Origin: Escherichia phage vB_EcoM_IME392
Reading direction: 5' to 3' (one strand)
Sequence record: MH719082.1
Length of the DNA: 64,000 bases
Below the pieces are notes generated by a model. That model had not been told where the DNA came from. It was given only the letters and a program-made list of their open reading frames with translations, and did no database searches. Positions 7,966 through 64,000 of the stretch are shown here, in pieces (the stretch's first letter is position 1; each line of letters opens with the position of its first letter). The position numbers and the translations under genes were made by a program.

Positions 7966-7972
7966 GTATATA

Positions 7973-8713: not shown

Positions 8714-8739
8714 GTTCTGTCCTCATTAGTTTCGACACC

Positions 8740-8770: not shown

Positions 8771-8784
8771 TATTGTACATATTC

Positions 8785-8812: not shown

Positions 8813-8817
8813 GTTAG

Positions 8818-10065: not shown

Positions 10066-10067
10066 AA

Positions 10068-43865: not shown

Positions 43866-43943
43866 TCTTTACCACGTGAAAAGGATGGACTTTTCCGAGG
43901 CATTCCACCATTATCAAGAAATAGTTGCTGCGGAGAGTAAATA

Positions 43944-47437: not shown

Positions 47438-47444
47438 GTGACTT

Positions 47445-48943: not shown

Positions 48944-48945
48944 GT

Positions 48946-49605
48946 ATGATAAATATTATAGACCTCATGCGTAATGGTCAGGATCCTCTGAAGGCCATCC
49001 ATAAGGGAGTAGTCGTTGATAATAACGACCCTGCCCAAAAATGCAGAGTAAAGGTTAGGGTTCCTGGGGTACTCGATGGTGATGGTATCCCATGGGCCAT
49101 TCCTATTGCATCTGCATTCCTGGGGGATGGGGAATCTGACCGTGTGGAAATACCAGAAGTAGGTACCGAGGTATCTGTCTCGTTCCCCACAGGAGATCAG
49201 CATTTCCCATTCTACACTGGGAGATGGCACTCTAAGGAAGTCCCGGAAGAGTTTAAAGAGAATTATCCCAATAGGTACGGATTTAAGGATTCTACCGGCA
49301 CTGTATTCTATATAGATAAAGTGTCTAAGGAAGTTCATTTTAAGCACTGTTCTGGATTTCAGTTCGATATTGACCAAGAGGCTAATTTTACTCTCACCAC
49401 CCCAGGAGGAGGTAAGGTCGATATCGCTAAAGCTCTGGAGATAATCGCCAAAGAGCATATCAAACTGGATACTCCTCTTGTCGATGGAACAGGAGAGATC
49501 AAGGACAAGGTTCGCAAGATGTCGGAAGATCGCGCTATCTACAACGGTCACGATCATGTTGGCGATAGTGGTGGTAGTACATCTCCGCCTAACTCTAAAC
49601 AGTAG
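48946..49605 (+). CDS. Baseplate central spike (gpV / gp5 OB-fold family)
   Basis: GVVVDNNDPAQKCRVKVRVPGVLDGDGIPWAIP matches the gpV/VgrG N-terminal OB-fold block. Confidence 0.65.
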   Translation: MINIIDLMRNGQDPLKAIHKGVVVDNNDPAQKCRVKVRVPGVLDGDGIPWAIPIASAFLGDGESDRVEIPEVGTEVSVSFPTGDQHFPFYTGRWHSKEVPEEFKENYPNRYGFKDSTGTVFYIDKVSKEVHFKHCSGFQFDIDQEANFTLTTPGGGKVDIAKALEIIAKEHIKLDTPLVDGTGEIKDKVRKMSEDRAIYNGHDHVGDSGGSTSPPNSKQ

Positions 49606-49609
49606 GTTC

Positions 49610-49981
49610 ATGATGGTTCAGCCAATTTATCGAGATATAGACCAGACCCTTAAGCGTAACTCGCTTAAGGATGGTGATGCAGTATTTCAGGCCATAGTTA
49701 ATGTACTGAAGACTCGCAAAGGTACCAGAATGTTTAATATGGAGTTTGGTTCTAATCTCGAAGATATCATCATGGAACCATGCGACGATATCACTGGTCT
49801 GCAAGTTTATGCAGAGGTGGTCGACGCTGTTACGAGATGGGAGCCAAGAGCCCTGTTAGACCGAGGTAAAACTAAGGTTACTCCTGATCCGGATAATCAC
49901 ATATTCTGGGTAGACTTATGGTTCTCTGTCAAAGGAATCGATGGTCAAGAATTTAACTACGAGGTGGGTCTGAAACGATGA
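49610..49981 (+). CDS. Baseplate wedge protein, gp25/GPW family
   Basis: LKTRKGTRMFNMEFGSNLEDIIMEP ... VTRWEPRA match GPW_gp25 blocks. Start placed at ATG 49610. Confidence 0.7.
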   Translation: MMVQPIYRDIDQTLKRNSLKDGDAVFQAIVNVLKTRKGTRMFNMEFGSNLEDIIMEPCDDITGLQVYAEVVDAVTRWEPRALLDRGKTKVTPDPDNHIFWVDLWFSVKGIDGQEFNYEVGLKR

Positions 49982-51351
49982 ACATAATTCAAGATTCCTC
50001 TCTATCCTTCGACCAGATCAGAACGGATTTAGAGAACTATATTAAGTCTCTTCCAGATTATGAGACTAAGTGGAAGGACTTCTACGAGGCTGGTGCTGGC
50101 GAAACAGTACTTAATACTGGTGCTGGTATCACTGCATTCTTAGCTTACGCTGCCTACATGAACCGCCGAGATTCGTTACTGGATTTCGGCAATATGACCT
50201 CGACCATCGTGTCTATTGGGTCTGCATTAGGTTACGTGTATAATCGTAAATCTGCTCCTCTTCTCCAGATTACGTTTACATCCACTGAGCAAGTTTACTG
50301 GGATAAGGAAGATCCTATCGGTAACTACATGGGTCGTTCTCTGGTTCTCACCAACTCCACCCAAATAGAAGTTGGCGTGAACACCATTGTGGTTGCTATA
50401 GGTGATTGGGTCTCTCAGGAGATAACCATCACTGATGCTAAGGATTTTAAAGGTATCAACGTACCTATTCAGCCTGATAATAATCTGGTTAACCTGTATA
50501 TCGATGGAGAGAAGATCTCCTACACCACAGCTGCGGAAGATATGGATTCGGACAATGTCCTAATTCGTTCTTACTTCTCGGGAATATTCATTATCTTCGG
50601 GAACGGGTCACTGGGCAGGAAGGCTGCTGTTAACCAGGTACTTAAGATAGAGTACGTTGCTCCCGCTGATAAACTAGATGGGTTAACTCTGGATCCTACC
50701 AAGATTCAGTTATACGTTGAAAATACGAGTAACTCATCTGAAGTTAAATACCCTGGGTCAGACCCTGATAGTCCTGAGAAGATCGTTGCTATTGCTCCTG
50801 GTTATTATTCAGCCAAGAGACGTCTGGTTACTCTGGACGATTACGCTTCGATAGGTGCTTCTTATCAGGGTGTGGTAAGTGCTAACGCTGCTCTTCCGAC
50901 TACTTCTTGCTGCTCGGTTAACGTCTCGTACCTACGAGCCGATGAATTAACCATGAATGATGCTATGAAGGCAGATTTCGAGAAGTATATGCTGCAGTAC
51001 GCCATGCTGGGTTCTAACATAAATGTTATAGACCCTATCAGGATCATGGTCGATGTTAAGATGCGAGTGGTTATTGACTCCGGAGCTGATACGGATGCCA
51101 TTACCAAGAAGATTCGTGAAACCATAAATAAAAAGTGCATGACTAACGGTGCATTCTTTACGGTTAACGATATGACTCTGCCAGAGTCTCTTCGCGTTAG
51201 ACGTATCTACATTAAGCAGCCTATTCTTGACCGACAGGCTAAGTACAATGAGTACTATAAGCTCCGCAAACTGGAGATCAGTTATACGGAAGATCGGACT
51301 CTGGTAGATTCCGGAGGCACAGATAAGAATGCGGGGTATGAGTATGGCTAA
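49978..51351 (+). CDS. Baseplate J-like protein (gp6/gpJ)
   Basis: 457 aa directly after the gp25-like gene with a 4-nt overlap, the canonical W-J order. Confidence 0.55.
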   Translation: MNIIQDSSLSFDQIRTDLENYIKSLPDYETKWKDFYEAGAGETVLNTGAGITAFLAYAAYMNRRDSLLDFGNMTSTIVSIGSALGYVYNRKSAPLLQITFTSTEQVYWDKEDPIGNYMGRSLVLTNSTQIEVGVNTIVVAIGDWVSQEITITDAKDFKGINVPIQPDNNLVNLYIDGEKISYTTAAEDMDSDNVLIRSYFSGIFIIFGNGSLGRKAAVNQVLKIEYVAPADKLDGLTLDPTKIQLYVENTSNSSEVKYPGSDPDSPEKIVAIAPGYYSAKRRLVTLDDYASIGASYQGVVSANAALPTTSCCSVNVSYLRADELTMNDAMKADFEKYMLQYAMLGSNINVIDPIRIMVDVKMRVVIDSGADTDAITKKIRETINKKCMTNGAFFTVNDMTLPESLRVRRIYIKQPILDRQAKYNEYYKLRKLEISYTEDRTLVDSGGTDKNAGYEYG

Positions 51352-52822
51352 GTTCAACACTCTAGATTACTTCTCTCCTAACCTTAGAGGGAACGAGTTA
51401 TATAAGTTCTTCTCGCAGGTGCTGGATCATGGTCTAGAGACTGTTGTCTTTCCGGAGATGGATAAAAATACGGCGATTTATGATCCTAGTAAACCGTCTT
51501 ATGATCCGATTTATATCCTGGAGCTACTGGGTCAACCAGACTTAGCAGATCTCATAACTACCGAGGTAGACCAGAACTCAGTATCTGTACTCCTCCCAAG
51601 TATCCTTGATAACAAGGGTATGAAGGATGGGGTTGATCTTATCTTTAAGCTGATAAATGTAGAGATAGAAGAGATATTGTATCAGAAGACTCCGGAAGGC
51701 TGCTCACTGGCAACCATCCTGCTTCCTAAGAACGTGATCTTGTCTACTCGGCAGATTAAGCTAATTGATCGTCTGTCGCGTAAGGTATTTCCGATATGCG
51801 TAAGACTTACCGGTATCGCTAACTGTCTTCCAGATGGCGTTGAATCTCTCGGAAGCGCCTCCTTGGACACCAGTTGGTTGCTAGACACATCAATCCTGGA
51901 TGGTTCAGTAGGTATACGAGTCCCAGATATTTCGGATACTCTATGGCTGCGATTCTGTCTCGATATTATGTCGGAGATGGAAGTACCTCTTGAAGTGTTG
52001 ATTGATCGCTTCTCGGATCGTCTGATGAACTCTTATCTGACTGTATTCGATAGGAGAACTATCAAGCTAGATAATGGTCTTATTCTGGATATGGGTACAT
52101 ACTTAGATCTCCAGAATACCGACACTGCTCACAGCAGACTCTATAGCTCATTGGCTAAGTTTAATGTAGATTTAAGCGCCGATTCCAGAACTACTGAGAT
52201 TGAGTCCTTACTGGACTTATCAGACTTGGTAGCTGGGTTGGAGTTTAAGTCCTCTATGCTGCGTGAGATCTTCCTGTTCTTGGATATCGACCTCTCAGAG
52301 TTCGGATTCCAGAATTACATGGATAGGAAGATAGAGCACTTATCCAAGGGGATAGAGCAAGTAAATTATGGATATGAGGGTGGTAATTACGCTGATGGTT
52401 ACGATTTAACTAACTATCAGGGTTTCGAATACGAGAACTTATACGTAATCCAATCTCATCGTGATGGCCAAACTCAGCGTAGCGGGACGGCTTATTACGG
52501 ATTGCCGGAAATAGACTGGCTACACTTCGAAGGTATGGACTTCATTAATGGGTCTTACCTGCTGGATGGTACTCGTTATCTTCACCAGGAGTTCATTAAA
52601 AAGATCAAAGTGTACGATTGGTATACTCATTGGTCTAGCTACCGAGAAGCTATGTTCCTAACCACTCATAAGACCGAAAGACTCTTAGAGAAACGGGATG
52701 GGACTATTCTCCATGACGGAACTTATAATCGCGGTGAGAAAGTAACTCGTTACGGATTCGAACCTCTGTACAACGACGTTATTAGTCACGATGATACTTA
52801 CTATCGCGATGCCAATCTATAG
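51329..52822 (+). CDS. Baseplate/fiber-attachment protein (gpI-like position)
   Basis: Follows the J-like gene. An alternative start is ATG 51344. Confidence 0.35.
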   Translation: MRGMSMAKFNTLDYFSPNLRGNELYKFFSQVLDHGLETVVFPEMDKNTAIYDPSKPSYDPIYILELLGQPDLADLITTEVDQNSVSVLLPSILDNKGMKDGVDLIFKLINVEIEEILYQKTPEGCSLATILLPKNVILSTRQIKLIDRLSRKVFPICVRLTGIANCLPDGVESLGSASLDTSWLLDTSILDGSVGIRVPDISDTLWLRFCLDIMSEMEVPLEVLIDRFSDRLMNSYLTVFDRRTIKLDNGLILDMGTYLDLQNTDTAHSRLYSSLAKFNVDLSADSRTTEIESLLDLSDLVAGLEFKSSMLREIFLFLDIDLSEFGFQNYMDRKIEHLSKGIEQVNYGYEGGNYADGYDLTNYQGFEYENLYVIQSHRDGQTQRSGTAYYGLPEIDWLHFEGMDFINGSYLLDGTRYLHQEFIKKIKVYDWYTHWSSYREAMFLTTHKTERLLEKRDGTILHDGTYNRGEKVTRYGFEPLYNDVISHDDTYYRDANL

Positions 52823-52830
52823 GTGATTAG

Positions 52831-53598
52831 ATGAGCAATTATACTGGGGCATTTAACTTTCATGCTCAGGTGTACCAATTTGAAGAAAGTGATGTGGTTA
52901 AAGGTGGCCCGGACGGCATTGATAACGTGCCTCTTACCCAGCTGTCAGATCGTACGTTTTATCTTAAGGCTCTTGCTGACTTTACATTCCTTAAGCTATT
53001 CAATCTTAATCCTCTCGGCTCGTTCAAACAAGGATTCCAGATTAACGTGGCTGGGTATGCGGTCTTCGACGAGGCCTCCGGTAAGTGGTTTAAGTGGACA
53101 GGATCTCTACCTAAAGTAGTGGTTAAGTCTTCTAAGCCAGAAACTACTGGAGGTATCTATGATCCAACCACCAATCCGAGCGGTAAGTGGGTGGCTATTG
53201 ACTTCAGTGTTCTAGACCTTGGCGCTGGGGTTAAGATCCCTACAGCAGCTGCTCCTGGTAATCTGTATAGCGGTAAGTACAATCCAGCCTTCGTTAAGAT
53301 TGAGAATGTCTCCAATCTAGACATAGCAGAAGCCATATATACCAGACTAGGGAATGTGGTTACTGTTAATGGCAAGATCACTGCTTCTGCTACCGATGCC
53401 GGAGAAGTAATGAAAATAGGAATTGGCTTACCTATTAACGCTACCTTCTCAGATGACTCAAGCCTCTCAGGAGTTGGCGTTGGTATAGTAGCTGGTCAGA
53501 TTTATGCCGATGTGGACAGTAGTGTGGCTGTTCTTGAGATTAATCAGGGTAGTACAGACGAGCTGTCTCTGAGATACACGTTCTCTTACACTATATAA
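52831..53598 (+). CDS. Receptor-binding protein 1 (short fiber/spike with shared N-terminal adaptor)
   Basis: N-terminal GGPDGIDNVPLTQLSDRTFYLK and GKWFKWTGSLPKVVVKSSKPETTGG adaptor motifs, shared with ORFs 53611, 59505 and 62616. Confidence 0.6.
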   Translation: MSNYTGAFNFHAQVYQFEESDVVKGGPDGIDNVPLTQLSDRTFYLKALADFTFLKLFNLNPLGSFKQGFQINVAGYAVFDEASGKWFKWTGSLPKVVVKSSKPETTGGIYDPTTNPSGKWVAIDFSVLDLGAGVKIPTAAAPGNLYSGKYNPAFVKIENVSNLDIAEAIYTRLGNVVTVNGKITASATDAGEVMKIGIGLPINATFSDDSSLSGVGVGIVAGQIYADVDSSVAVLEINQGSTDELSLRYTFSYTI

Positions 53599-53610
53599 TA
53601 GGATATCGAA

Positions 53611-54528
53611 ATGGGTACTTATCAGGGTAAAAATCAGTACGTAGAGGACATCTATACCTTCGAACGTACTGACAAAGTGTCGGGTGGTGATGACGGTATT
53701 GATAACGTACCCATTAAGAATCTTACCGACAGAACTACATATCTCCGTAGTCTAGCATTGAATTCATTCCTGGATATCTATGGGATTAACCCAGTAGGTA
53801 CTTTCGGGATAGGATTTGATCTCCAGGACTCTGGGGATGGTGTGTATGACGAGGTGTCTGGCAAGTGGTATTACTGGCTAGGCTCCTTCCCCAAATCTGT
53901 TGCCGAGAATTCTTCTCCGGAAGATACTGGTGGTATCTTCGACCCAGAAAGTAATCCAGATGGATTATGGACTGAGGTAATTCCGGTAAACCAGCGTCAG
54001 GTAGATATGGCTGCTCGGGCATTCCGAGTTAAGACCGAAGAAGTCCAGTTCATGAAAGTAGGTCGTCCTCTCGACGGCTTTCGTGTATTGTATGACTTAG
54101 CTTCCCAGGAAGCTTATCGTTTACCTATGGATATCCCTGAAGGATCAACTATTGTTAGCTTAACAGACGGAGGGTGGCTAGAGCATAGCAATGGCAGGGT
54201 AAACTTATCTGCTTACGCCGTCGAATTAGAAGAGTATAAGTACTTTACCGGAGGCGACTTCAGTACCGGCTTTACTCTACGTCAGAACCACTGCATAGTT
54301 ATGCATGATGGTGTTCTGTATCGCTGGGATGGCGATTTTCCGAAGACCGTAAATGCTAACAGTACTCCAGAATCAGACGGTATTGGTGATGGTAAATGGG
54401 TTCCTGTTAAGACTGGTGCCCTGTATCGCTATGCTACTGTTGCCCAGTTAGATAGTGTTGAGAATGCTCTAACTACTCGCATAAACGAAGTAGAGAGCGC
54501 CGCTTTTGTTAACGCATTACTGTTCTAA
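53611..54528 (+). CDS. Receptor-binding protein 2 (paralogous N-terminus)
   Basis: GGDDGIDNVPIKNLTDRTTYLR and GKWYYWLGSFPKSVAENSSPEDTGG. A second copy of the W..G.FPK motif occurs near the C-terminus (YRWDGDFPKTVNANSTPESDG). Confidence 0.6.
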   Translation: MGTYQGKNQYVEDIYTFERTDKVSGGDDGIDNVPIKNLTDRTTYLRSLALNSFLDIYGINPVGTFGIGFDLQDSGDGVYDEVSGKWYYWLGSFPKSVAENSSPEDTGGIFDPESNPDGLWTEVIPVNQRQVDMAARAFRVKTEEVQFMKVGRPLDGFRVLYDLASQEAYRLPMDIPEGSTIVSLTDGGWLEHSNGRVNLSAYAVELEEYKYFTGGDFSTGFTLRQNHCIVMHDGVLYRWDGDFPKTVNANSTPESDGIGDGKWVPVKTGALYRYATVAQLDSVENALTTRINEVESAAFVNALLF

Positions 54529-54537
54529 GGAATACCC

Positions 54538-54879
54538 ATGGCAGCTAAATTTAAACGAGCTAGCGCTACGCTAACTAAATCTGAATCTACCATTTATACT
54601 ACTCCGGCTACTGGTGCTATAATCGTTGGAATCCTGGCAGCCCATAATGGTGTTACAGATGCTGCAGCTCAGTTTCAGCTTAAGATTAAACCTGCATCTG
54701 GAAATGATGTATACCTGCTAGGTAAAGACACTAATCTTCCTCAGAAGTCGGCATTGAATATCGATTCTGCTAAGGTAATTCTCATGGATGGTGATCAGGT
54801 AGTAGCTTCAGCATCTGCTGTAGATACTTCTAATAACTCGAACATGGTAGACCTGACTCTTTCCATTGTGGAGAACTAA
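54538..54879 (+). CDS. Hypothetical 113-aa protein in the fiber locus
   Basis: ORF with tight spacing in the fiber locus. Confidence 0.4.
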   Translation: MAAKFKRASATLTKSESTIYTTPATGAIIVGILAAHNGVTDAAAQFQLKIKPASGNDVYLLGKDTNLPQKSALNIDSAKVILMDGDQVVASASAVDTSNNSNMVDLTLSIVEN

Positions 54880-54880
54880 T

Positions 54881-56227
54881 ATGGGTGGTTATATTGGTTT
54901 CAATCCATCTGATGGTGCTGGTGAACTTCGTAATGAATTGACTCCTAAGATCAAGAACAACCAGGATAACATCATCGAGTTGTGGGCGAATGACTTAGCC
55001 GATTGTGGTTACAATCTGGCAGCTACTTTCGAGTTCGGTGGTATCTTATCTAACCGATTCGATCTGGTAGTATCTCTTGATCGTCAGCGTGCATATTCAT
55101 GGAAGGGTAACTTTCCAGTAGATATTGCAAACGCACCTATCACCCATTCTAATTGGGTACCTTGGTCGATCGACCAAATGGGTGCTGGTAACTTATTGGA
55201 AGTTAAGTGGGTATCCTCTCGTAAGTTATTAGGGTCACCATTATGGGGTGGATTCGTAGCAGCTGATGGTGGTATCTTCTCACGTATCTTGTATCCTGAT
55301 ACTTGGGCAGCAGTCAATGCTGGACTAGTACAAGTATGTCCTGAAGCTGACTGGGTAGCTGATCCTACTAAGCGCCACTGCTATACTACTGGTGATGGTA
55401 CTACTACCTTCCGAGTACCTGACTTAAATGGTGCGTACCGTCATCCTAGTGACTCCTCTAAGAACTCCATTCCAGGATTATTCTTACGTGGTGATAATGG
55501 TAGTGACTACGGATACGTCCAGCGTAATGCTGCACCTAATATTACTGGTATTATACAAGGTCGTACTTCTGGTACTTATGGTCGACTATTCAGTCAATCT
55601 ACTATTAATAGTGGAGCATTACAAACTAGTGATGAGAATGGTGGTGAATTCGCTACTGGTACAGTAACTGCATCGACTCCATCTGATCGTATGAGTAAGT
55701 TACTATTTGATGCATCAAAATCACTTACACCAGGTGCTGAGGCTTACGGTCGTGCTGAACCTAATGGTGCACCTGCTGATGAAGTCCGACCTAACAGTGC
55801 AGTAGGTTGTTACGCTATCCGTCTACAAGGTCGAGTTGTGAATCCCGGTACGGTGGATCTGTTATCATTAGTTGATACAGTTGCAGGTATGACTATAGGT
55901 AATACACCTAGCAGTAATCAGATTCCTAACATGAAGCATTGGACTCGTGGAGGGTCAGGTCGTGCATGGTGGAGGAAAGAACCTGATGGATTCATTAGAC
56001 AGGGAGGATTCTTTACTGCTAATGTTAGACCTGGTTCAGGTACTAAAGTGTACGTTGATGTAACATGGGCTATACCATTCCCTAATGAATGTAACTCAGT
56101 AACCGTAGGTGATGCTGGATTCGGTGATGGTAATATGTGGGGCGCCACTAATATCACCAGGACTGGAGCTCGTTTATGGTGTAGCGCAGTAGGCGAGGGT
56201 GGTTACTACTTGGCTGAGGGCTACTAA
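54881..56227 (+). CDS. Tail fiber protein with tail-collar-type domain
   Basis: Start placed at ATG 54881 (GGAGAACTAAT-ATG). TFRVPDLNG motif. 141-nt segment 55292-55432 is paralogous to 57033-57173. Confidence 0.65.
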   Translation: MGGYIGFNPSDGAGELRNELTPKIKNNQDNIIELWANDLADCGYNLAATFEFGGILSNRFDLVVSLDRQRAYSWKGNFPVDIANAPITHSNWVPWSIDQMGAGNLLEVKWVSSRKLLGSPLWGGFVAADGGIFSRILYPDTWAAVNAGLVQVCPEADWVADPTKRHCYTTGDGTTTFRVPDLNGAYRHPSDSSKNSIPGLFLRGDNGSDYGYVQRNAAPNITGIIQGRTSGTYGRLFSQSTINSGALQTSDENGGEFATGTVTASTPSDRMSKLLFDASKSLTPGAEAYGRAEPNGAPADEVRPNSAVGCYAIRLQGRVVNPGTVDLLSLVDTVAGMTIGNTPSSNQIPNMKHWTRGGSGRAWWRKEPDGFIRQGGFFTANVRPGSGTKVYVDVTWAIPFPNECNSVTVGDAGFGDGNMWGATNITRTGARLWCSAVGEGGYYLAEGY

Positions 56228-56655
56228 TGGCTAATTATCTATATAGCAATTCTCGTAAATCGTTCTATCCAGTATCGTTAATAGAAAATTATCAAAATAG
56301 CATAAACGGATTACCTGAAGATTTAGTAGAAGTCAGTGATTCTGACTTTAATGAATTTTCTCAGAGTCGTACTAATGAGTGCTGTAATTTAACTGAATCA
56401 GGATTCGAGTGGATTCCTAAAGGTCCTGAACCAGTATCAGTCGAAGATGCTCATCGTATCAAGAGTATCTTGATAAATAGTGCTAATAAGACTATTAGTA
56501 CCTGGCAGACTAAGTTGATGCTTAATAGACTATCTGACGAAGATAAAGTCAAACTGAATGCTTGGTTGGACTACATCGATGAGCTGGAAGCTATCAATCC
56601 TGACTCAGTAGAAGATACATCAGCTATCCCGTGGCCTACTGCTCCTGAAGCATAA
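56227..56655 (+). CDS. Tail fiber assembly chaperone (Tfa/gpG-like)
   Basis: C-terminal LSDEDKVKLNAWLDYIDELEAINPD...IPWPTAPEA is the typical Tfa ending. ATGA-type junction with the fiber gene. Confidence 0.7.
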   Translation: MANYLYSNSRKSFYPVSLIENYQNSINGLPEDLVEVSDSDFNEFSQSRTNECCNLTESGFEWIPKGPEPVSVEDAHRIKSILINSANKTISTWQTKLMLNRLSDEDKVKLNAWLDYIDELEAINPDSVEDTSAIPWPTAPEA

Positions 56656-56666
56656 AGAGGTATAAA

Positions 56667-58118
56667 ATGTCAAATGGATATATTGGTACCTACCCTAAAT
56701 TCGCTATTTATTCTCCTGAGAAATTGGCGAAAGGTACCACCACTAAGACTCTGCAGTATGCTCCAGGATCAGCTTATGCAATTCTGGTAGTAGTAGGCGG
56801 GGCGATTCAGGAACCTAACGTAGCCTATACTGTAGCAGGTAATGTCATTACTTTCACGGAGACGCTCCCGTACGATGGATGGGTTCAGTACCGTGGACTT
56901 GAAGGTAAGGATGCTACTGACTTTATCGCAGCTGCAGGTGATCCAGTACTATCAGCACGTTGGGCATTCTCACGTGATCATATCTGGGATGGATTCGTTC
57001 CACTAGATGGTCAGGAATTATCTCGTGCTATGTACCCGTCAGCATGGGAGGCTATCAATGCTGGATTAGTACCAGTCGAGGATGATGCTGCATGGTTGGC
57101 TGATCCCAAGAAACGTGCATCGTTTACTAAGGGTGATGGTACTTCAACATTCCGAGTACCTGACCTTAATGGTAAGTTGGGTGATTCTATAAAGGGACTG
57201 CACATCCGTGGAGATAATGGTGATTCAGCTCGTACCGGTAAAGTACTCCAGAATGGCGCTCCGAATATTACAGGATACACTAATTTATTAGGGTATAACA
57301 CATGGGCAAATAATGCCGGAGCGGCCAACGGTGCATTAAACTTAAGCCAGGGTTTAGCATTCTCCAACGGTACCGATTTAGTTGTAAACTCTTCTTACAG
57401 AGAATTAAGAGCTAATTTAGATGCATCTAAATCTAATGCATCTTATGGTCGTGACGGCACTGATGAAGTGCGTCCTAATGCAGCTATTGGATGCTGGGTA
57501 GTCAAGTTATTCGCAGGTATCGCTAATGCTGGTGTAGCTGATCTGCAGCAAGTGCTAGTCACGTTAGCTGGTAAGATGGATAAGACCAAGTACGAATTCG
57601 GTGTACCAATGATTGGCGTACCATTCTACTGGCCATCGGATAAGATGCCTGATGAAGTATATCCTGAGCTGAAAGGTATGCACTTCATCCAAGCTCGTGG
57701 TGATAACTTCGATGCTGAACTGTATCCTAAGTTAGCTACTGTTTATCCTAATAATAAGTTACCAGATTTACGTGGTGAATTCATCCGTGGTTGGGATGAC
57801 GGACGTGAAGTGGATACTGGACGAGCTCTGCTATCGCGTCAATCACATTCAATTATTGAACACTCACACTATATGGAGTTGTGGACAGGTGACGTACTTC
57901 ATTCTGGGGATGCTAGAGATGGGGTAAATGCAGGAGTACTGGCTACCTATGGTGATGGTGGGTCAATTAAATCTGACGAATCAGGTAATCATGTACCCTC
58001 CTTAGTACGAGCTATTAATACTCGTAATATTAATCGTTACAACGTAAATAGCGAAAATATAAGCACAGAAAACCGTCCACGTAACGTAGCATATAACATC
58101 ATTGTAAGGGCATTATAA
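56667..58118 (+). CDS. Tail fiber protein with two collar-type domains
   Basis: TFRVPDLNG and LPDLRGEFIRGWDDGR motifs. Paralogous to ORFs 54881 and 58802. Confidence 0.65.
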   Translation: MSNGYIGTYPKFAIYSPEKLAKGTTTKTLQYAPGSAYAILVVVGGAIQEPNVAYTVAGNVITFTETLPYDGWVQYRGLEGKDATDFIAAAGDPVLSARWAFSRDHIWDGFVPLDGQELSRAMYPSAWEAINAGLVPVEDDAAWLADPKKRASFTKGDGTSTFRVPDLNGKLGDSIKGLHIRGDNGDSARTGKVLQNGAPNITGYTNLLGYNTWANNAGAANGALNLSQGLAFSNGTDLVVNSSYRELRANLDASKSNASYGRDGTDEVRPNAAIGCWVVKLFAGIANAGVADLQQVLVTLAGKMDKTKYEFGVPMIGVPFYWPSDKMPDEVYPELKGMHFIQARGDNFDAELYPKLATVYPNNKLPDLRGEFIRGWDDGREVDTGRALLSRQSHSIIEHSHYMELWTGDVLHSGDARDGVNAGVLATYGDGGSIKSDESGNHVPSLVRAINTRNINRYNVNSENISTENRPRNVAYNIIVRAL

Positions 58119-58726
58119 TGAGCATTGAATTTAACGATCAAGGTTTTGCCACCACTTCTGGTAAAGTGATGGTTTATAACTACAATGAAGATACTCGTGA
58201 ATTCACATTTAATCGTGAAGAGTTTATCTACGTAGGTGTATCGGTACCAGCTCACTCCACAATCGTTCCAGTGCCTGCAGAACGTGAAGGATATGCTCGA
58301 GTGTATCATGAAGATACCAAGAAGTGGGAATATGTAGAAGATCACCGTGGAGTAGAAGTTTACTCAAAAGCTGATCAAACTAAAGTAACTATCCAGGAAC
58401 TCGGACCTATCGACGATATCTACACTACGATTGCTCCTACTTCAATCCATGATAATTGGGATGAAGATACTGGTGCATGGGTACTAGATGAAGTTGCTGA
58501 GCACGAAGCTAAGGTGGTTGCGGCTGATGCCAAGAAAGTAACATTGATTGAGGATGCTAATGCTTATATCAATAGTAAGCAGTGGCCATCCAAACTGGCA
58601 ATGGGCCGACTGAGCGATGCTGATAAAGTCAAGTTCAATTTGTGGCTAGATTATCAGGAGGAAGTAGAAGCTATTGAAACTACTGATCCTGATACTATCG
58701 TATGGCCAGAAGCACCTGCTAAGTAA
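58118..58726 (+). CDS. Tail fiber assembly chaperone (Tfa/gpG-like), second copy
   Basis: C-terminal LSDADKVKFNLWLDYQEEVEAIETTDPDTIVWPEAPAK. 1-nt overlap with the fiber stop. Confidence 0.7.
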   Translation: MSIEFNDQGFATTSGKVMVYNYNEDTREFTFNREEFIYVGVSVPAHSTIVPVPAEREGYARVYHEDTKKWEYVEDHRGVEVYSKADQTKVTIQELGPIDDIYTTIAPTSIHDNWDEDTGAWVLDEVAEHEAKVVAADAKKVTLIEDANAYINSKQWPSKLAMGRLSDADKVKFNLWLDYQEEVEAIETTDPDTIVWPEAPAK

Positions 58727-58801
58727 TATTTATTAAGGGGTAGTTATGTCAATTAATTACATGACTCCAGATAGTATCGTGATTGTAAGTGAGGTGTCAA
58801 T

Positions 58802-59425
58802 ATGAGCCTCACCCGTCTTAAGTATTTAATGAACGAAGGTACAGATGCTGAAGTTGAAGCGTATCTACGCCAGCTGGGTATCGGTAATGGAGCTCCATTA
58901 ATAGGAGTACCGTTCCCGTGGGTTCATCCTACCAAGATGCCTGATGAGATATTTACTTCAATGAAGGGTATGCGATTTCTGAAGATGAATGGTCAGACAT
59001 TCGATCCAGAAACATACCCAGAACTGGCTAAGCTATGGACAACTAATCAGTTACAAGATCTACGTGCACAATTTATCCGTGGATGGGATGACGGTCGAGG
59101 CATGGATGCAGGACGAACGATCAATACTGGTCAGTCAGATTCTGCCCCAGAAATATCTGGTTGGTTCAGGACTGTTAATACTGAGAATGCATCAATCTGG
59201 GAAAGCATAACATCAGGATTTGGTTCTGGAGCTCTCTACGGTACTAATACTAAAGGTCAGTATTATAGATTAGCGGGACTTCCAATGGATATTAACGCTA
59301 CCTATAAGTATCCTACAGTAATTAACTTCTTGGCATCACGATCATCTTCAGTATATGGACGAAACGGCACCAATGAAATTGTACCTAAAAACGTAGCATT
59401 TCTGTACATCGTTCGAGCTAAATAA
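58802..59425 (+). CDS. Short tail-fiber tip protein (collar-domain only)
   Basis: GVPFPWVHPTKMPDE...LQDLRAQFIRGWDDGR is homologous to the C-terminal half of ORF 56667 (nt 58904-59098 versus 57615-57806). Confidence 0.55.
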   Translation: MSLTRLKYLMNEGTDAEVEAYLRQLGIGNGAPLIGVPFPWVHPTKMPDEIFTSMKGMRFLKMNGQTFDPETYPELAKLWTTNQLQDLRAQFIRGWDDGRGMDAGRTINTGQSDSAPEISGWFRTVNTENASIWESITSGFGSGALYGTNTKGQYYRLAGLPMDINATYKYPTVINFLASRSSSVYGRNGTNEIVPKNVAFLYIVRAK

Positions 59426-59504
59426 ATAAATAGCTACAATAGCAGGTGCAACTTGTACATGGGTTATGATAAACGAAGTGTTGACAATATCATAGGGTGA
59501 TTAA

Positions 59505-62492
59505 ATGTCTTATAATCCAATTGTAGAAGGGTCAACTTGGCCCGAGACTATTCGCCGCTTAGAAAAGACGGATAGGGCAGAAGGCGGTCAACTAGTTACT
59601 AATTCTAAGGATGAACCAGTATCCGGACATATTAATCATCCAATAACCCAATTAGCTACTAGAACCTCCATTTTAAAAAAGTCTAATTTATCGATAATTA
59701 ATAATACTAAAGAACAGTGGAAGTTATTACTCGGTGACTTAGGACTAACTCTTGTTGGCACTTTTGAAGAAGGTGCTACAGTAAACAGTAAAAAGGATGC
59801 TGTCTGGCATATTGATGGTGGCCAGTGCTACGTGTGGGGTGGCGTGCTCCCTAAGACTGTATATGCTAACTCCTCACCGCTAACTACTGGTGGTGTCTCT
59901 TCTGATGCTTGGGTTAGTATTGGTGATACCGCACTGCGAGGGCAAATATCAGACCCGGATGGTGCAACAAAATACCCCGAATTGCAGATTGCTCGATGGC
60001 GTGACATTTTCGACCCTCGTGGTTGGGGAGCTAAAGGTGATGGATTAGTCGATGATACTGTGGCTCTTAATAATCTGTTAAGCGCTGCTCCAGTAGGTCA
60101 GAAAATTAATGGTAACGGCAGAACCTATAAAGTATCCGCACTTCCAGATATTAGCAGATTCGTTAACACTCGTTTCGTTTATGAGCGTATTCCTGGCCAG
60201 CCGCTTTATTATGTATCTGACGAGTTTGTTCAGGGTGAGTTAATTAAAATAACCGATACCCCTTATTACAATGCTTGGCCTCAGGATAAAGCGTTCGTTT
60301 ACGACGATGTTATTTACTGTCCGTTCATGGCTAGCGATCGGCACGGGGTTAGCAGGCTTCATGTATCCTGGGTTCGCTCAGGTGATGACGGACAGACCTG
60401 GACGACCCCGGAGTGGCTAACTGACCTACACCCTAATTACCCAACAGTTAACTACCACTGTATGAGTATGGGGGTGATGCGTAATCGTCTCTTTGCGATG
60501 ATTGAGACCCGTACTTTAGCAGCTAACGCATTAGTGACCTGTGAGTTGTGGGATCGCCCCATGTCCCGTAACTACCATCTGACAGGTGGTATAACAAAAG
60601 CTGCCAACCAGCCTGTGGCTGTAATTACCATCCCTGAACACGGTCTTTTTGCTGGGGATTTTGTTAACTTCTCGAACTCTGGGGTGACTGGCGTTTCTGG
60701 GAATATGACTGTAACTTCAGTTATTGACCGCAACACGTTTACAGTTACCACGCCAAATCAACAAGCATTCGACCAAAATAACTCTACCAGCCGCTGGCAT
60801 ATGGGGACATCGTTCCATCAGTCACCATGGCGTAAAACCAGCCTTGGATTGATCCCTATGGTTACCGAGGTTCACAGTTTTACCGCCATCAATAACGATT
60901 CATTCATGATGGGGTACCATCAGGGTGATGTTGCTCCGCGTGAAGTAGGTATGTTGTATTTCCCTGATGCATTTAACAATCCTGGGCATTATATAAAACG
61001 ACGTATCCCTGCTGAATATGAGCCGGATGCGGCAGAACCCTGTGTTAAATATTTTGACGGTGTTCTTTATGTTGTAACCCGTGGAACTCGGTCGGACCGT
61101 CTGGGTAGTTCGCTTCATCGTAGTAATGATTTGGGTATAACCTGGCAATCATTGAGGTTCCCGAATAATGTCCACCACTCCACCCTGCCATTCGCTAAGG
61201 TAGGAAACGAACTGATTCTTTTCGGCACTGAACGCGCCGACAACGAGTGGGAAGCAAACGCACCCGACCAGCGATATTTTAGTTCTTACCCACGAACGTT
61301 TTACACGCGAGTGAACCTCGACACCTGGAACCTGGATAATACTCAGTGGGTGAATATCACTGACCAGATTTATCAGGGTGGTATTGTTAACTCTGGCGTC
61401 GGTGTCGGATCGGTCGTCGTGAAAGATAGTTATATCTATTACATGTTCGGTGGGGAAGACCATCTGAACCCATGGACATATGGAGATAACTTAGAGAAAG
61501 ACCCATTCAAATCAGACGGTCATCCCTCAGATTTGTATTGTTACAAAATGCAGATCGGTCCAGACAATCGTGTTTCTCGTGATTTCAGGTACGGTGCTGT
61601 ACCTGACAGAGCGGTTCCAGTGTTTTTTGATACGAATGGAGTTCGCACTGTTCCTGCTCCAATGGAATTTACAGGGGATTTGGGTTTAGGTCATGTGACC
61701 ATTAGAGCCAGCACCAGTAGTAACATTCGCTCTGAAGTTTTAATGGAAGGTGAGTATGGGTTTATCGGGAAATCTGTACCGACTAATAACCCTGCAGGTC
61801 AGCGCATCATATTTTGCGGAGGCGACGGTACCAGTTCTTCTACTGGTGCACAGATTACGCTTTACGGTGCGAGTAACACAGCTTCTCGCAGGATAGTTTA
61901 CAACGGAGATGAGCATCTGTTTCGGAGTGCTGATGTTAAGCCTTATAACGATAACGTCATTGCGCTTGGTGGGCCTAGCAACCGTTTCACCACTGCATAC
62001 CTCGGAAGCAACCCTATTGTTACTTCTAACGGAGAGAAGAAAACAGAGCCGGTAGTTTTTGATGATGCTTTTTTAGATGCTTGGGGCGATGTTCATTACA
62101 TCATGTATCAGTGGTTGGATTCTGTACACCTGAAAGGAAATGACGCTAGAATCCATTTTGGCGTAATTGCTCAGCAGATCCGCGATGTATTCATTGCTCA
62201 CGGTCTGATGGATGAGAACAGCACGGATTGCCGCTATGCTGTTCTGTGTTACGACAAATATCCTCGCATGACAGACATGGTGTTCTCTCACTATGAAATA
62301 GTTGAACACACTGACGAGGAGGGTAATGTCACTACCACGGAAGAACCTGTATACACCGAGGTGGTTATTCACGAAGAGGGTGAGGAGTGGGGTGTGAGGC
62401 CTGATGGAATTTTCTTTGCTGAGGCAGCATTCCAGAGAAGAAGACTGGAAAGAATCGAAGCCAGACTTTCCGATCTTGAAAAGAAGCAGTAA
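59505..62492 (+). CDS. Endosialidase tailspike (endo-N-acetylneuraminidase, GH58) with C-terminal intramolecular chaperone domain
   Basis: Asp-boxes SGDDGQTW and SNDLGITW. Long colinear stretches match my recollection of coliphage K1F endoNF (GWGAKGDG..., QKINGNGRTYKV, ITDTPYYNAWPQDKAFVY, GDVAPREVG, GHPSDLYCYKM...). The C-terminal S74-type chaperone domain has a Ser-Lys dyad in VTS-NGEKK (Ser codon 62025-62027, residue 841; Lys 846). Confidence 0.85.
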   Translation: MSYNPIVEGSTWPETIRRLEKTDRAEGGQLVTNSKDEPVSGHINHPITQLATRTSILKKSNLSIINNTKEQWKLLLGDLGLTLVGTFEEGATVNSKKDAVWHIDGGQCYVWGGVLPKTVYANSSPLTTGGVSSDAWVSIGDTALRGQISDPDGATKYPELQIARWRDIFDPRGWGAKGDGLVDDTVALNNLLSAAPVGQKINGNGRTYKVSALPDISRFVNTRFVYERIPGQPLYYVSDEFVQGELIKITDTPYYNAWPQDKAFVYDDVIYCPFMASDRHGVSRLHVSWVRSGDDGQTWTTPEWLTDLHPNYPTVNYHCMSMGVMRNRLFAMIETRTLAANALVTCELWDRPMSRNYHLTGGITKAANQPVAVITIPEHGLFAGDFVNFSNSGVTGVSGNMTVTSVIDRNTFTVTTPNQQAFDQNNSTSRWHMGTSFHQSPWRKTSLGLIPMVTEVHSFTAINNDSFMMGYHQGDVAPREVGMLYFPDAFNNPGHYIKRRIPAEYEPDAAEPCVKYFDGVLYVVTRGTRSDRLGSSLHRSNDLGITWQSLRFPNNVHHSTLPFAKVGNELILFGTERADNEWEANAPDQRYFSSYPRTFYTRVNLDTWNLDNTQWVNITDQIYQGGIVNSGVGVGSVVVKDSYIYYMFGGEDHLNPWTYGDNLEKDPFKSDGHPSDLYCYKMQIGPDNRVSRDFRYGAVPDRAVPVFFDTNGVRTVPAPMEFTGDLGLGHVTIRASTSSNIRSEVLMEGEYGFIGKSVPTNNPAGQRIIFCGGDGTSSSTGAQITLYGASNTASRRIVYNGDEHLFRSADVKPYNDNVIALGGPSNRFTTAYLGSNPIVTSNGEKKTEPVVFDDAFLDAWGDVHYIMYQWLDSVHLKGNDARIHFGVIAQQIRDVFIAHGLMDENSTDCRYAVLCYDKYPRMTDMVFSHYEIVEHTDEEGNVTTTEEPVYTEVVIHEEGEEWGVRPDGIFFAEAAFQRRRLERIEARLSDLEKKQ

Positions 62493-62615
62493 ATAAAGAC
62501 TTTTACCGTAGGTAGGAGAAGGTAGAGGCTTCAATTTAAGATTTAACTTAAACTAATCACCACTCTAAAGTTACTAAGTGTTTGTACATCATGTAATATT
62601 TTATGGAGATCACCA

Positions 62616-64000
62616 ATGGGCGGTCGTTCTAAGTTATTTAGCGAACTGGGCGGAGCTCCTCTTAATACTTATCAGCATGATAACCAGACTCTCGATATTC
62701 GCGAGTTAGAAAATCAGCAGAAAGTATTAGACGAGACTCTTGCCGAAACAATAGGCAACGTTAACGAGTTGCAACAGACTGCTGGTCAGTCTATGTATAT
62801 CCTCGGTAACTATGCCTCCGGAATGGTGATCGAGAACGACCGCCAGTACGTCAGATATGATAATCTGCTGTACTATTGGACTGGTCCTGTACCGTTCACT
62901 ACCACCGGCAACTTCTACGAAGAATCCTACTGGACTGGTGGGGTACAGAGCGGTATCGAGTGGAGTTACGAGGTACAGGAAGATGGGGAATTCGAGTTTA
63001 ATATTCCTTACTCCTTTACCAACGTACGTCTATTCGTAGGTGGTGTCCGCCTTACTCGCGTAGAAGATTACACTATCGATGTGATTAATCGCAAGATCAC
63101 TCTGACTAAGGTTAAGCTGTCGAAGGGTGTCCTGGTGACTGCCGAGCTGAACTCTCGTGATGCTCTTAGCGTTACCCAGGATCGCATCGATAGCCTTACC
63201 AGAGAGATCTCAGAGAAAGTAGGTTTCGTTAATTACAAACTTACTGATCTGTCTGAAGGTCAGAGCCTGACTCTCACTACCAGAGTCCAGACTGTAAGCT
63301 TCTCAGTAAATGGGGAGTATTATAAATGGGATGGCGTTCTTCCTAAAGTTGTTAATTATGGAGATCCGGAGCCATCTCAATCTGAACAGGGGACTGGTAA
63401 GTGGATTCCTGTAGGTTCTGGTGCTCTTAAGTCAGAGCTCATGACTGCTGGCGAAACTACTGGTGCTGCTATTGTCTATCTGAGATATGGTGGCACGGTG
63501 GCTGATGGTATTCGATACATCACCCCAGAAATGGCTCGAGCTAAAGGCGACGGTACTACGGACGATACAGCAGCTCTTCGCTCTGCTGTTACCCTGGCTA
63601 AGACTTATGGTCTTAAGCTTATGGGTATGGGTACTTACAAGATCTCTAACCAATCGGTGGATATTTCCGGGGTAGTGATCGAGAACCTAACCATAGTTGG
63701 TACCGGTGCTAGTTCACAGCTGCTGGTTAATGGCGATACGGACATAACTAAGCTGAACCTTAGCAAATGCGGTATTCGTCACATCAACGGTATCTTTAAA
63801 CTCGACCAGTTCGAAATTAATGACTGTTCTGCGACTGCTGCTCTGCTGTGTCAGCAATTAGCAGCTAATAGCCAACTGTTCGTCACTAATGGTATTATGC
63901 GTCGCTGTAACTATGGTTACCTCCGTCAGGGTAGTCCTGCATCTTCCAAGCCGCTCACTGCGACTCTGCTACAGAACTTACAGTTCTTCGACATGAAGAG
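62616..64000 (+). CDS. Tailspike with right-handed beta-helix (pectate-lyase-like) depolymerase domain, 3'-truncated by window
   Basis: Not in the track because there is no stop in the window. My translation from ATG 62616 (GGAGATCACCA-ATG) is open to 64000: MGGRSKLFSELGG... It has the adaptor motif YYKWDGVLPKVVNYGDPEPSQSEQGTGKW, then ARAKGDGTTDDTAALRSA, typical of beta-helix tailspikes. Confidence 0.7.
   Translation, partial: MGGRSKLFSELGGAPLNTYQHDNQTLDIRELENQQKVLDETLAETIGNVNELQQTAGQSMYILGNYASGMVIENDRQYVRYDNLLYYWTGPVPFTTTGNFYEESYWTGGVQSGIEWSYEVQEDGEFEFNIPYSFTNVRLFVGGVRLTRVEDYTIDVINRKITLTKVKLSKGVLVTAELNSRDALSVTQDRIDSLTREISEKVGFVNYKLTDLSEGQSLTLTTRVQTVSFSVNGEYYKWDGVLPKVVNYGDPEPSQSEQGTGKWIPVGSGALKSELMTAGETTGAAIVYLRYGGTVADGIRYITPEMARAKGDGTTDDTAALRSAVTLAKTYGLKLMGMGTYKISNQSVDISGVVIENLTIVGTGASSQLLVNGDTDITKLNLSKCGIRHINGIFKLDQFEINDCSATAALLCQQLAANSQLFVTNGIMRRCNYGYLRQGSPASSKPLTATLLQNLQFFDMK

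Follow-up and report, generated by a model that had tools for sequence, protein, structure and literature searches.

The stretch of DNA analyzed here (64,000 nucleotides of record MH719082.1, below called the window) carries the host-recognition gene cluster of the E. coli myovirus vB_EcoM_IME392, and this cluster is assembled from swappable modules. It contains two tailspikes that degrade capsule or slime, two tail fibers that depend on chaperones, and several small adaptor-like proteins. The "Swiss-army-knife" phage tail is real in IME392 and of a kind that is already familiar. The ORFs of the locus, designated by their first position in the window (Table 1), exactly match the IME392 proteins AXY86119–AXY86125, and contractile-tail genes for the tail sheath and the baseplate wedge are found upstream. 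Every ORF named in an earlier reading of the letters alone (the sequence-only reading) is present on the plus strand at the claimed position. That reading had left out the 113-aa ORF 54538, and its locus bounds of 52831–64000 fell short at both ends, as the locus reaches into the C-terminal half of 51329 and beyond 64000. The ORFs are tightly spaced within modules (−1 to 12 nt), with 75–123 nt where modules meet. PHROG matches to tail fibers or tailspikes were obtained for seven of seven proteins, namely 52831, 53611, 54881, 56667, 58802, 59505, and 62616. In the record, which was published in 2021, the genes of the locus are labeled only as "putative tail fibers".

Table 1. Features of the IME392 host-recognition locus (window positions)
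Feature	Position	Strand	Remarks
Peripheral baseplate protein, 497 aa	51329..52822	+	C-terminal ~300 aa are the putative docking site for receptor-binding protein (RBP) anchors
255-aa protein: anchor aa 1-57, PF18668 aa 63-111, all-beta C-terminal domain aa ~126-255	52831..53598	+	Candidate adaptor or minor RBP
305-aa "body-less tailspike"	53611..54528	+	Corresponds to AXY86119.1; putative docking/branching adaptor
113-aa single jelly-roll protein	54538..54879	+	First cassette gene; putative small virion or adaptor protein
Tail fiber 1, 448 aa	54881..56227	+	Corresponds to AXY86120.1
Tfa chaperone for fiber 1	56227..56655	+	PF02413 Caudo_TAP E 8e-19, phrog_188
Tail fiber 2, 483 aa	56667..58118	+	AXY86122.1, "putative collar fiber protein"
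Tfa chaperone for fiber 2	58118..58726	+	PF02413 E 9e-17, phrog_105 E 1e-57
207-aa tip-only collar module, no N-terminal anchor, no Tfa of its own	58802..59425	+	Candidate accessory tip or fossil
Spike N-terminal part: anchor and PF18668, aa 1-141	59505..59927	+	PF18668 aa 85-141
Endosialidase body: N-terminal extension, beta-propeller with inserted beta-barrel, stalk, C-terminal intramolecular chaperone	59928..62492	+	
Colanidase-like beta-helix tailspike	62616..64000	+	First 461 of ~873 codons lie inside the window

The adaptor motif (Y/W).W.G..PK.V.....P...GG, which had been proposed to be shared by 52831, 53611, 59505, and 62616, belongs to a genuine attachment or head domain of branched tailspike complexes, supported by Pfam and PDB matches. 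It corresponds to PF18668 (Tail_spike_N), the head domain of the CBA120 and G7C tailspikes, which is found above the gathering score in all four proteins, with two such copies in 53611. Taken literally, however, the pattern matches only 59505 and the first copy in 53611, as in 52831 the first position is occupied by F, and 62616 lacks the GG and is spaced differently. When the window was translated in all six frames, the core W.G..PK.V was found five times, always within these four ORFs and with two of the copies in 53611, against a chance expectation of ~0.02 by a rough residue-frequency estimate. Two more copies are degenerate, one near aa 72 of 54881 (Pfam E 0.014, sub-threshold) and one near aa 86 of 62616. 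The proteins 52831, 53611, and 59505 have in common that PF18668 follows an N-terminal anchor with the pattern E..D...GG..G..N.P...L..RT..L, which could be aligned over these three paralogous positions and four relatives. None of the domains of the locus matched T4 gp10 or the TSP4-N entry. An XD docking platform might be formed by the PF18668 copies next to the anchor, with a D2-type head as the alternative. The XD domains of G7C gp66 are reported to resemble XD3 of TSP4 (PMC8825819), and the domain scheme is described for CBA120 and RaK2 (PMC8825819, PMC10253068).

The enzymatic nature of spike 59505, which had been called an endosialidase, is clearly supported by matches to all five endosialidase Pfam domains, with E-values of 1e-35 for PF12218, 2e-205 for PF12217, 4e-40 for PF12195, and 8e-78 for PF12219. 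In a phmmer search, the protein matched endoNF (1V0E) with 1338 bits over aa 176–840, and the match to 1V0E and 3GVL is nearly end-to-end (aa 171–840). The residues E511, R526, and R577 align with E581, R596, and R647 of endoNF, which we take to be its catalytic residues (Glu581, Arg596, Arg647). The position of R647 is backed by the mutant entry 3GVJ, which shows an ER-to-EA difference in the same alignment. Ser841 aligns with the cleavage serine directly after the "NPIVT" end of the mature chain, where cleavage is predicted, and is followed by a PF13884 Peptidase_S74 domain (aa 844–901) and a match to the C-terminal part of endoNF (3GW6, E 2e-175). Judged by this domain content, 59505 is a complete K1F-type endosialidase, and its predicted substrate is the alpha-2,8 polysialic acid of the K1 capsule.

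The DNA of this body is 79–90% identical to that of phages K1F, UE-S5a, and YX22 from window position ~59902 onward, just where the PF18668 domain ends. The DNA of the N-terminal part is instead 86–93% identical to the contigs L002 and L003, whose spikes bear different bodies. At the protein level, identity to L002 and L003 is 56–60% over aa 1–195, and over its first 59 aa the protein shares 49% identity with a 560-aa protein of phage EP_H11.

The second enzymatic spike, 62616, had been described as a beta-helix depolymerase, in agreement with its similarity to phi92 gp150 (6E0V, E 2e-14, aa 278–440 of the part in the window). It matched phrog_6117 "colanic acid degradation" (E 1e-38), and its PF18668 domain is at aa 217–267. 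A 98%-identical protein in L002 comprises 873 aa, of which aa 278–866 align with chain positions 30–616 of gp150 (6E0V, E 6e-69). PF27800 WcaM is listed for this relative in precomputed Pfam data, and there was a partial match to TIGR04004 WcaM far below the cut-off. Via this relative, 62616 is judged to be a full-length homolog of the phi92 gp150 colanidase. As the body is only 30–40% identical to annotated colanic-acid-degrading proteins, colanic acid is not a certain substrate. Over its N-terminal 204 aa, 62616 shares 47.5% identity with an 824-aa protein of EP_H11.

Between the small anchor proteins and the endosialidase lies the fiber cassette. Fiber 1 (54881) has a short N-terminus ("MGGYIG"), the degenerate PF18668-like motif, a T5 pb1-like domain (8HQZ, L-shaped tail fiber, E 8e-30, aa 107–324), and a Gp53-like C-terminal tip (PF21882 Gp53-like_C, E 1e-6). 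Fiber 2 (56667) consists of a small N-terminal domain, a T5 pb1-like domain (8HQZ, E 1e-33), and a collar-type tip (PF07484 Collar, E 2e-10; T4 gp37 tip 2XGF, E 4e-10). The pb1-like middle domain common to both is 40% identical. The two predicted Tfa chaperones were readily confirmed, with PF02413 scores of 68.5 bits (56227) and 61.9 bits (58118) at a cut-off of 22.1. They are of the lambda gpK type, and their start codons each overlap the stop codon of the preceding fiber by 1 nt. The view that 54881, 56667, and 58802 are all collar-domain fibers holds for 56667 (PF07484, 40.9 bits at a threshold of 24) but not for 54881, which has no Pfam Collar match. The short 58802 is sub-threshold (17.8 bits at a threshold of 24), yet it is a clear homolog of the fiber 2 tip, with 35% identity to the collar region of 56667 (aa 312–482) and 33–45% identity to the C-terminal tips of HK97 Stf and P2-type fibers. 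It is preceded by a ribosome-binding site (GAGG, 7 nt upstream), and in both L008 and L009 a 176-aa counterpart occupies its place.

The cassette as a whole is 80–92% identical in the 113-kb contig L008 (76% for 54881, 81% for 56667, and 89% for 58118 individually), whereas the baseplate proteins of L008 are only 23–28% identical to those of the window. Homologs of 52831 and 53611 were not detectable within the 11 kb of L008 that were inspected. As the cassette there adjoins baseplate genes without them, the fibers may not need these proteins as adaptors.

Over aa 1–123, the small proteins 52831 and 53611 share 49% identity. In 53611, the anchor (aa 1–57) and the first PF18668 copy (aa ~60–123) are followed by a D1-D2 head (aa 126–272) that includes the second copy, a short coiled-coil neck, and then the stop codon. 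The head matched CBA120 TSP3 (6NW9, E 2e-28), TSP1 (4OJ5), and TSP4 (5W6H) as well as G7C gp63.1 (4QNL), and tblastn found only N-termini of Kuttervirus and N4-like tailspikes. A 983-aa relative, P0009, has the same head, here fused to a body of 700 aa that includes a Peptidase_G2 domain. For the C-terminal domain of 52831 (~130 aa), a PDB sequence search gave no match, and the AlphaFold2 model of the protein was poor (pLDDT 46). As this domain evolves faster than the remainder of the protein (dN 0.25 in comparison to L005), it could still bind a receptor. 52831 matches an IME392 protein at 100% identity and its relatives at 91% and 75% (dN/dS 0.08–0.13), and 53611 is 88–93% identical in four Logan contigs (dN/dS 0.06–0.09). 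Both genes are intact in the window and in the Logan contigs L002–L005, and the dN/dS values of 0.06–0.13 at dS up to 0.7–1.3 point to sustained purifying selection. Because of this selection, and because both proteins are 91–93% conserved among relatives with entirely different fibers, they are more likely structural adaptors than specificity determinants.

The neighboring 51329 follows gp25-like and gp6-like wedge genes and had no match in Pfam and PHROG searches. Compared with EP_H11, its aa 1–200 are 94–100% identical, but aa 201–497 only 24–56%, and the DNA homology to EP_H11 ends at window position 52096. In relatives that retain the same 255- and 305-aa proteins, 51329 is 98% identical. 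Its C-terminal half thus diverges exactly where the set of RBPs differs, and because the divergence tracks this set, we infer a docking role for this half.

The alignment with L002 reveals conserved blocks at 43611–54561 (96.7%), 59487–59927 (86%), and 62553–64000 (95.9%), and variable blocks at 54562–59486 and 59928–62552. At the position of the cassette, L002 has three separate short fibers with similar C-terminal domains. As read from these alignments, three kinds of parts make up the mosaic locus: a conserved scaffold, a mobile cassette of six genes (54538–59425), and an endosialidase body that was swapped in directly behind PF18668. Of the sequenced phages in the collection, EP_H11 (OP688485.1) is the nearest relative. 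It shares 95.5% DNA identity in the structural genes as far as the middle of 51329 and has the three anchor classes in the same order (780-, 560-, and 824-aa proteins). However, it has a single full-length 780-aa spike with the same anchor in place of the 255-/305-aa pair of IME392, it lacks the fiber/Tfa cassette, its other two spikes have different bodies, and it has no endosialidase.

The multivalent adsorption apparatus of phi92 (Justusliebigvirus), to which the locus had been likened, is described by Schwarzer et al. (2012), as cited in PMC12210895, and by cryo-EM in PMC13450770. Both phages are contractile-tailed E. coli phages that encode several different appendages, both have non-enzymatic fibers, and 59505 and 62616 are direct homologs of the endosialidase gp143 (4HIZ, E 8e-231) and the colanidase gp150 (6E0V, E 6e-69 with the full-length relative of 62616). 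Because of this direct homology of both spikes, the comparison is apt for function. The backbones are nonetheless unrelated: in megablast, the structural region of IME392 matched only EP_H11, and its genome has 116 kb as compared to the 146–149 kb stated for the subfamily of phi92. Moreover, the 59505 body gives a much higher score with K1F endoNF (1338 bits, 1V0E) than with gp143 (772 bits, 4HIZ), the IME392 spikes have CBA120/G7C-type PF18668 heads, and IME392 has Tfa-dependent fiber cassettes.

With the branched tailspike complexes of CBA120 (TSP1–4, Ackermannviridae) and G7C (gp63.1/gp66) (PMC8825819, PMC11414711), IME392 shares the D1-D2/PF18668 heads, the combination of conserved N-terminal assembly domains with variable C-terminal enzymatic bodies, and recombination directly after the head. 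Phage YX22 has the same endosialidase body behind a TSP3-type head. IME392 differs in that its anchor sequence is another one, with no recognizable match to XD1/T4 gp10, in that the anchor is present on three proteins rather than one (TSP4), two of which have no enzymatic body, and in that the locus also holds Tfa-dependent fibers; branching in IME392 is presumed. The fibers resemble HK97 Stf, P2 gpH/gpG, and T5 pb1 in their pb1 repeat domain (8HQZ, in 54881 and 56667), their collar or gp37-like tips, and the Caudo_TAP chaperone after each fiber, but they are much shorter (448–483 aa), have unrelated N-termini, and are located inside a tailspike-type locus with a jelly-roll gene and a tip-only ORF.

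The view of this region as a multivalent adsorption locus is supported. The proposed number of at least six RBPs is an overcount, as clear receptor-engaging modules are present in four proteins (54881, 56667, 59505, and 62616). 53611 ends after head and neck with no receptor-binding body, 52831 has just its small C-terminal domain of no recognized fold, and 58802 is a tip with neither anchor nor chaperone of its own. We consider it likely that the tail appendages encoded by the host-recognition module of IME392 are trimers that form a modular and probably branched set. As suggested by homology and co-variation, the shared anchors would dock on the variable C-terminal half of 51329, and PF18668 and the D1-D2 domains would build trimeric platforms resembling those of CBA120 TSP4/TSP2 and G7C gp66. 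52831 and 53611 would mainly be structural adaptors or branch points, and the cassette (jelly-roll, fiber, Tfa, fiber, Tfa, tip module) would be a plug-in complete in itself. In the course of infection, the spikes would strip capsule and colanic acid, giving fibers and baseplate access to outer-membrane or LPS receptors and allowing them to trigger contraction.

Three other explanations need to be weighed. The cassette could in principle encode one composite fiber, with fiber 1 proximal, fiber 2 distal, and the 113- and 207-aa proteins as joints or tips, which would leave about three specificities (one fiber and two spikes). The six genes move as a unit between unrelated backbones, the pb1-like middle domains of both fibers are homologous, the PF18668-like motif is present, though sub-threshold, in fiber 1 only, and the different small N-terminal domain of fiber 2 could dock on fiber 1. 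However, each fiber has its own Tfa directly downstream, and chaperone-dependent tips of the Tfa type are normally free C-terminal receptor-binding ends. L002, moreover, has its three separate short fibers at this position, and we regard a composite fiber as rather unlikely.

Still less plausible, and in our view improbable, is that all seven proteins with PHROG matches are independent RBPs with six or more specificities, although these matches and the GenBank labels as putative tail fibers would agree with it. The distinct, faster-evolving C-terminal domain of 52831 and the relation of 58802, with its good ribosome-binding site, to HK97 Stf/P2-type receptor-binding tips would also fit. But 53611 has nothing able to bind a receptor, P0009 being the complete version, 58802 has no anchor, and the 91–93% identity of 52831 and 53611 persists while the fibers and the spike body are exchanged, which is the opposite of how specificity determinants usually behave. 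Conversely, 52831, 53611, and 58802 could be functionless leftovers of recombination, i.e., truncated tailspike or fiber genes, with only the four large genes being relevant. The region is clearly recombinogenic, 53611 resembles a spike cut after the neck (full-length versions being P0009 and the EP_H11 780-aa protein), and 58802 resembles a fiber tip displaced by the insertion of a newer tip with its Tfa. This is very improbable, as 52831 and 53611 are under purifying selection and intact in all five sequences, and the counterpart of 58802 holds its position in L008 and L009 in an otherwise unrelated background.

The predicted host range of K1 strains and strains with another polysaccharide is reasonable as a prediction. 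The only host-range data found are spot tests in which IME392 lysed 13 of 28 E. coli strains. It is conceivable, as a tentative extension, that the 255- and 305-aa proteins are tailspikes that lost their bodies and were kept as docking hubs, and that the cassette is a plug-in with its own jelly-roll adaptor, mobile between unrelated baseplates. If this is true, the IME392 tail would be a hybrid, not described as such, of tailspike-branching and Tfa-fiber attachment.

The RBP locus of IME392 has a modular architecture, with attachment domains shared at the N-termini of its proteins and with conserved adaptor-like proteins. The sequence-only reading had placed all ORFs that it named correctly (ORFs are designated here by start position). 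It had linked 52831, 53611, 59505, and 62616 by a common motif, and this link held in that PF18668 (Tail_spike_N) scored above the Pfam threshold in all four, whereas the motif as written was exact in two only. Six-frame translation of the entire window yields five occurrences of the core W.G..PK.V, always inside these four ORFs. Two further copies, both degenerate, are located in 54881 and close to the N-terminal end of 62616. Both proposed Tfa chaperones, 56227 and 58118, were confirmed by PF02413. The designation of 54881, 56667, and 58802 as collar fibers was solid for 56667 and sub-threshold but backed by homology for 58802, and did not apply to 54881, which lacks Collar; 54881 and 56667 (fibers 1 and 2) have a T5 pb1-like domain in common. 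Receptor-engaging modules were recognized in four proteins, the two spikes and the two Tfa-dependent fibers. The view of a multivalent locus with at least six RBPs was right in outline, but it overcounted the RBPs and missed that the two short proteins, 52831 and 53611, are adaptor-like.

The proteins 52831, 53611, and 59505 share a ~57-aa N-terminal anchor (pattern E..D...GG..G..N.P...L..RT..L) followed by PF18668. In 53611, a D1-D2 tailspike head that matches CBA120 TSP3, TSP1, and TSP4 and G7C gp63.1 (E 1e-24 to 1e-28) is followed by a 30-residue coiled-coil neck and then a stop, without a body, and tblastn matches cover no more than the N-terminal parts of tailspikes from Kuttervirus and N4-like phages. 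A 3.7-kb metagenomic Logan contig, P0009, encodes a 983-aa protein with a 53611-type anchor and a head that is by eye ~90% identical to that of 53611 over ~270 aa, to which it adds a beta-helix body and an autoproteolytic chaperone domain of the Peptidase_G2 type. The related phage EP_H11 has a 780-aa spike with a 53611-type anchor at the same position. As P0009 and EP_H11 carry these full-length relatives, 53611 is, judging from sequence, a tailspike that lost its body. The gene is intact in all four Logan contigs L002-L005 (88-93% identical, dN/dS 0.06-0.09) and is not decaying; for 52831, the relatives in these contigs are 75-91% identical (dN/dS 0.08-0.13). Since 52831 and 53611 are conserved in relatives whose fibers and spike body are all replaced, we read both as putative structural adaptors; the C-terminal domain of 52831, which evolves faster, may have a role in receptor binding. 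A structure model of 52831, built from three sequences, had a pLDDT of 46, and the fold search re-found the identical UniProt entry and was otherwise uninformative. The C-terminal domain alone gave only chance matches to PDB sequences, a scan of IMG/VR found no relatives of 53611, and NCBIfam added nothing for the short ORFs.

Both spikes had been regarded as enzymatic, and the domain evidence agreed. In Pfam, 59505 has every endosialidase domain and the C-terminal intramolecular chaperone, and it aligns nearly end to end with K1F endoNF (1V0E, 1338 bits). Its residues E511, R526, and R577 align with the catalytic residues of endoNF, which we take to be Glu581, Arg596, and Arg647 (for R647, the mutant entry 3GVJ, also part of this alignment, lends support), and Ser841 aligns with the cleavage serine. 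From window position ~59902, the DNA of the endosialidase body has counterparts, at 79-90% identity, in K1F, in the 73-kb UE-S5a group, and in YX22, a phage of 155 kb. As K1F-like DNA starts there and homology to L002 ends at 59927, the crossover lies at codons ~133-141, which coincides exactly with the end of the PF18668 domain. Sequence comparison showed that YX22 has the same endosialidase body behind a TSP3-type D1-D2 head.

The second spike, 62616, is cut at the window end after 461 codons, and the part inside the window matches the beta-helix of phi92 gp150 (6E0V, E 2e-14). For the part past position 64000, the L002 relative served as a stand-in; it is 98% identical to 62616 over the entire 461-residue stretch, has a length of 873 aa, matches gp150 with aa 278-866 (E 6e-69), and has a precomputed Pfam hit to WcaM. 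The next gene in L002 encodes a 483-aa Phage_tail_beta protein, and in EP_H11 proteins of 472, 273, and 1014 aa precede the lysis genes. Colanic acid is our best guess for the predicted substrate, and it is not certain because identity to proteins that carry the label 'colanic acid degradation' in other phages is only 30-40%.

A DNA comparison of the window with L002, a 113-kb contig, resolved the region into alternating conserved and unrelated blocks, which are listed together with other features.

Features of the window, with identities of mosaic blocks referring to L002
Feature	Position	Strand	Remark
BCCT-family (betaine/carnitine/choline) transporter, full-length	5577-6959	-	460 aa; PF02028, E 1e-92
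Region of the 921-aa ORF and type II topoisomerase	13374-16139, 8818-12053	-	
Conserved block	43611-54561		96.7%
952-aa tail protein	43944-46802	+	Glyco_hydro_19 chitinase/lysozyme-type domain, aa ~730-827
Unrelated block 1	54562-59486		six-gene fiber cassette
19-codon ORF MSINYMTPDSIVIVSEVSI	58747-58806	+	has a ribosome-binding site (AAGGGG) of its own; occupies the gap that separates Tfa 58118 from 58802
TTGTACAT	59453-59460, 62582-62589	+	intergenic, just upstream of both spike genes
Conserved block	59487-59927		86%
Unrelated block 2	59928-62552		endosialidase body
Conserved block	62553-64000		95.9%

The cassette comprises, in this order, a 113-aa protein, fiber 1, a Tfa, fiber 2, a Tfa, and a tip-only ORF. 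The same six genes, at 80-92% DNA identity, occupy positions 6418-11246 of another 113-kb contig, L008 (GCA_958333155.1 CATUWF010000011.1), whose baseplate proteins share only 23-28% identity with their counterparts in the window. Its occurrence in L008 beside a different baseplate gene set, which includes a PAAR-motif protein, is evidence that the fiber cassette is mobile among phage lineages. On the left, the module as a whole begins within the baseplate gene 51329, of which aa 1-200 are 94-100% and aa 201-497 are 24-56% identical to EP_H11. The co-variation of this C-terminal half with the RBP set suggests that it is the docking place of the anchors. A promoter scan yielded fewer promoter-like sites than in shuffles, and no convincing terminators were found at the module borders. 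The TTGTACAT word was dropped as a late-promoter candidate, as it was not enriched (4 matches in the window vs 2.15 expected).

The 113-aa protein, 54538, was absent from the sequence-only reading. It was confidently modelled as a single jelly roll (pLDDT 87.5), and the nearest structures in the model-based search were TNF-like trimers and trimeric cement and turret proteins of phages. A BFVD search turned up similar proteins of ~110 aa, among them three cyanophage proteins that bear the name virion (structural) protein; 19 representatives make up its small sequence family. As 54538 travels with the fibers, we infer that it is a small virion or adaptor component. The tip-only ORF, 58802, has homologues in the C-terminal tips of HK97 Stf and P2-type fibers and in the 56667 tip. 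Its ribosome-binding site is GAGG; it lacks an anchor and a Tfa of its own, and it has a counterpart at the same position in L008 and L009. The 19-codon ORF ends in a stop that overlaps the 58802 start codon (ATATGA), and the two may therefore be translationally coupled.

Multi-RBP tails with swappable parts are already well known from phi92, CBA120, G7C, and RaK2, and the IME392 genome is public. The proposed likeness to phi92 is borne out functionally, as a 'Swiss-army-knife' tail, and by two directly homologous components, the spikes being related to phi92 gp143 and gp150. The attachment domains of the CBA120 and G7C tailspikes are also those of the locus. IME392 belongs to neither lineage. 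By analogy with the scheme for CBA120, G7C, and RaK2 (PMC8825819, PMC10253068), trimeric anchors would bind the baseplate periphery, PF18668-type domains would be platforms on which other trimers dock to form a branched bundle, and the enzymes would strip capsule and slime so that fibers and baseplate could get to the outer membrane. That the body-less tailspike heads are hubs for the mobile, self-contained fiber cassette is a tentative and rather doubtful idea. The sole host-range datum found, lysis of 13 of 28 strains in spot tests, is compatible with multivalency and is no test of it.

The proteins of 53611, 54881, 56227, 56667, 58118, 58802, and 59505 are exact matches of AXY86119.1-AXY86125.1 of Escherichia phage vB_EcoM_IME392 (116,460 bp, GenBank MH719082.1), and a further protein of this phage shares 100% identity with the 255-aa product of 52831. 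The contig index contained no exact match for the 59505, 53611, and 56667 proteins. GenBank labels for the locus are 'putative tail fibers protein', 'putative collar fiber protein', and 'putative tail fiber assembly protein', and nothing further. As genes for a tail sheath, a gp25-like protein, gp6-like wedge proteins, and a hub lie upstream, IME392 is contractile-tailed. Within the phage collection, the structural region is matched by EP_H11 (111 kb) only, at 95.5% identity, ending inside gene 51329.

The 952-aa protein probably serves as tape measure or else inside the tail, and its EP_H11 counterpart is annotated as a lytic murein transglycosylase. A single 921-aa ORF unites a Metallophos nuclease domain and an SMC/AAA_23 ATPase in the manner of a fused Mre11-Rad50 or SbcCD, and adjoins a type II topoisomerase of two subunits. 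The BCCT transporter gene sits among phage replication genes; its product has 97.6% identity to an EP_H11 protein whose annotation reads high-affinity choline uptake, and only 25 further records of the phage collection match, all below 60% identity (27-31% among the matches listed). PMC12686479 counts both IME392 and EP_H11 among the phages that have genes for 5hmdU-derived thymidine hypermodification, and it is only a guess that the transporter is tied to substrate import.

The analysis supplies a functional reading for a locus whose GenBank label goes no further than 'putative tail fibers'. The phage lineage has been called 'genetically unique' (Hu et al., 2021, cited in PMC12210895 and PMC12686479). 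The end of PF18668, the start of the 113-aa gene, and the middle of the baseplate gene 51329 offer clean recombination joints for RBP-module swaps. IME392 is predicted to be K1-capsule dependent, which bears on phage therapy against K1 E. coli, and it may also be able to degrade colanic acid.
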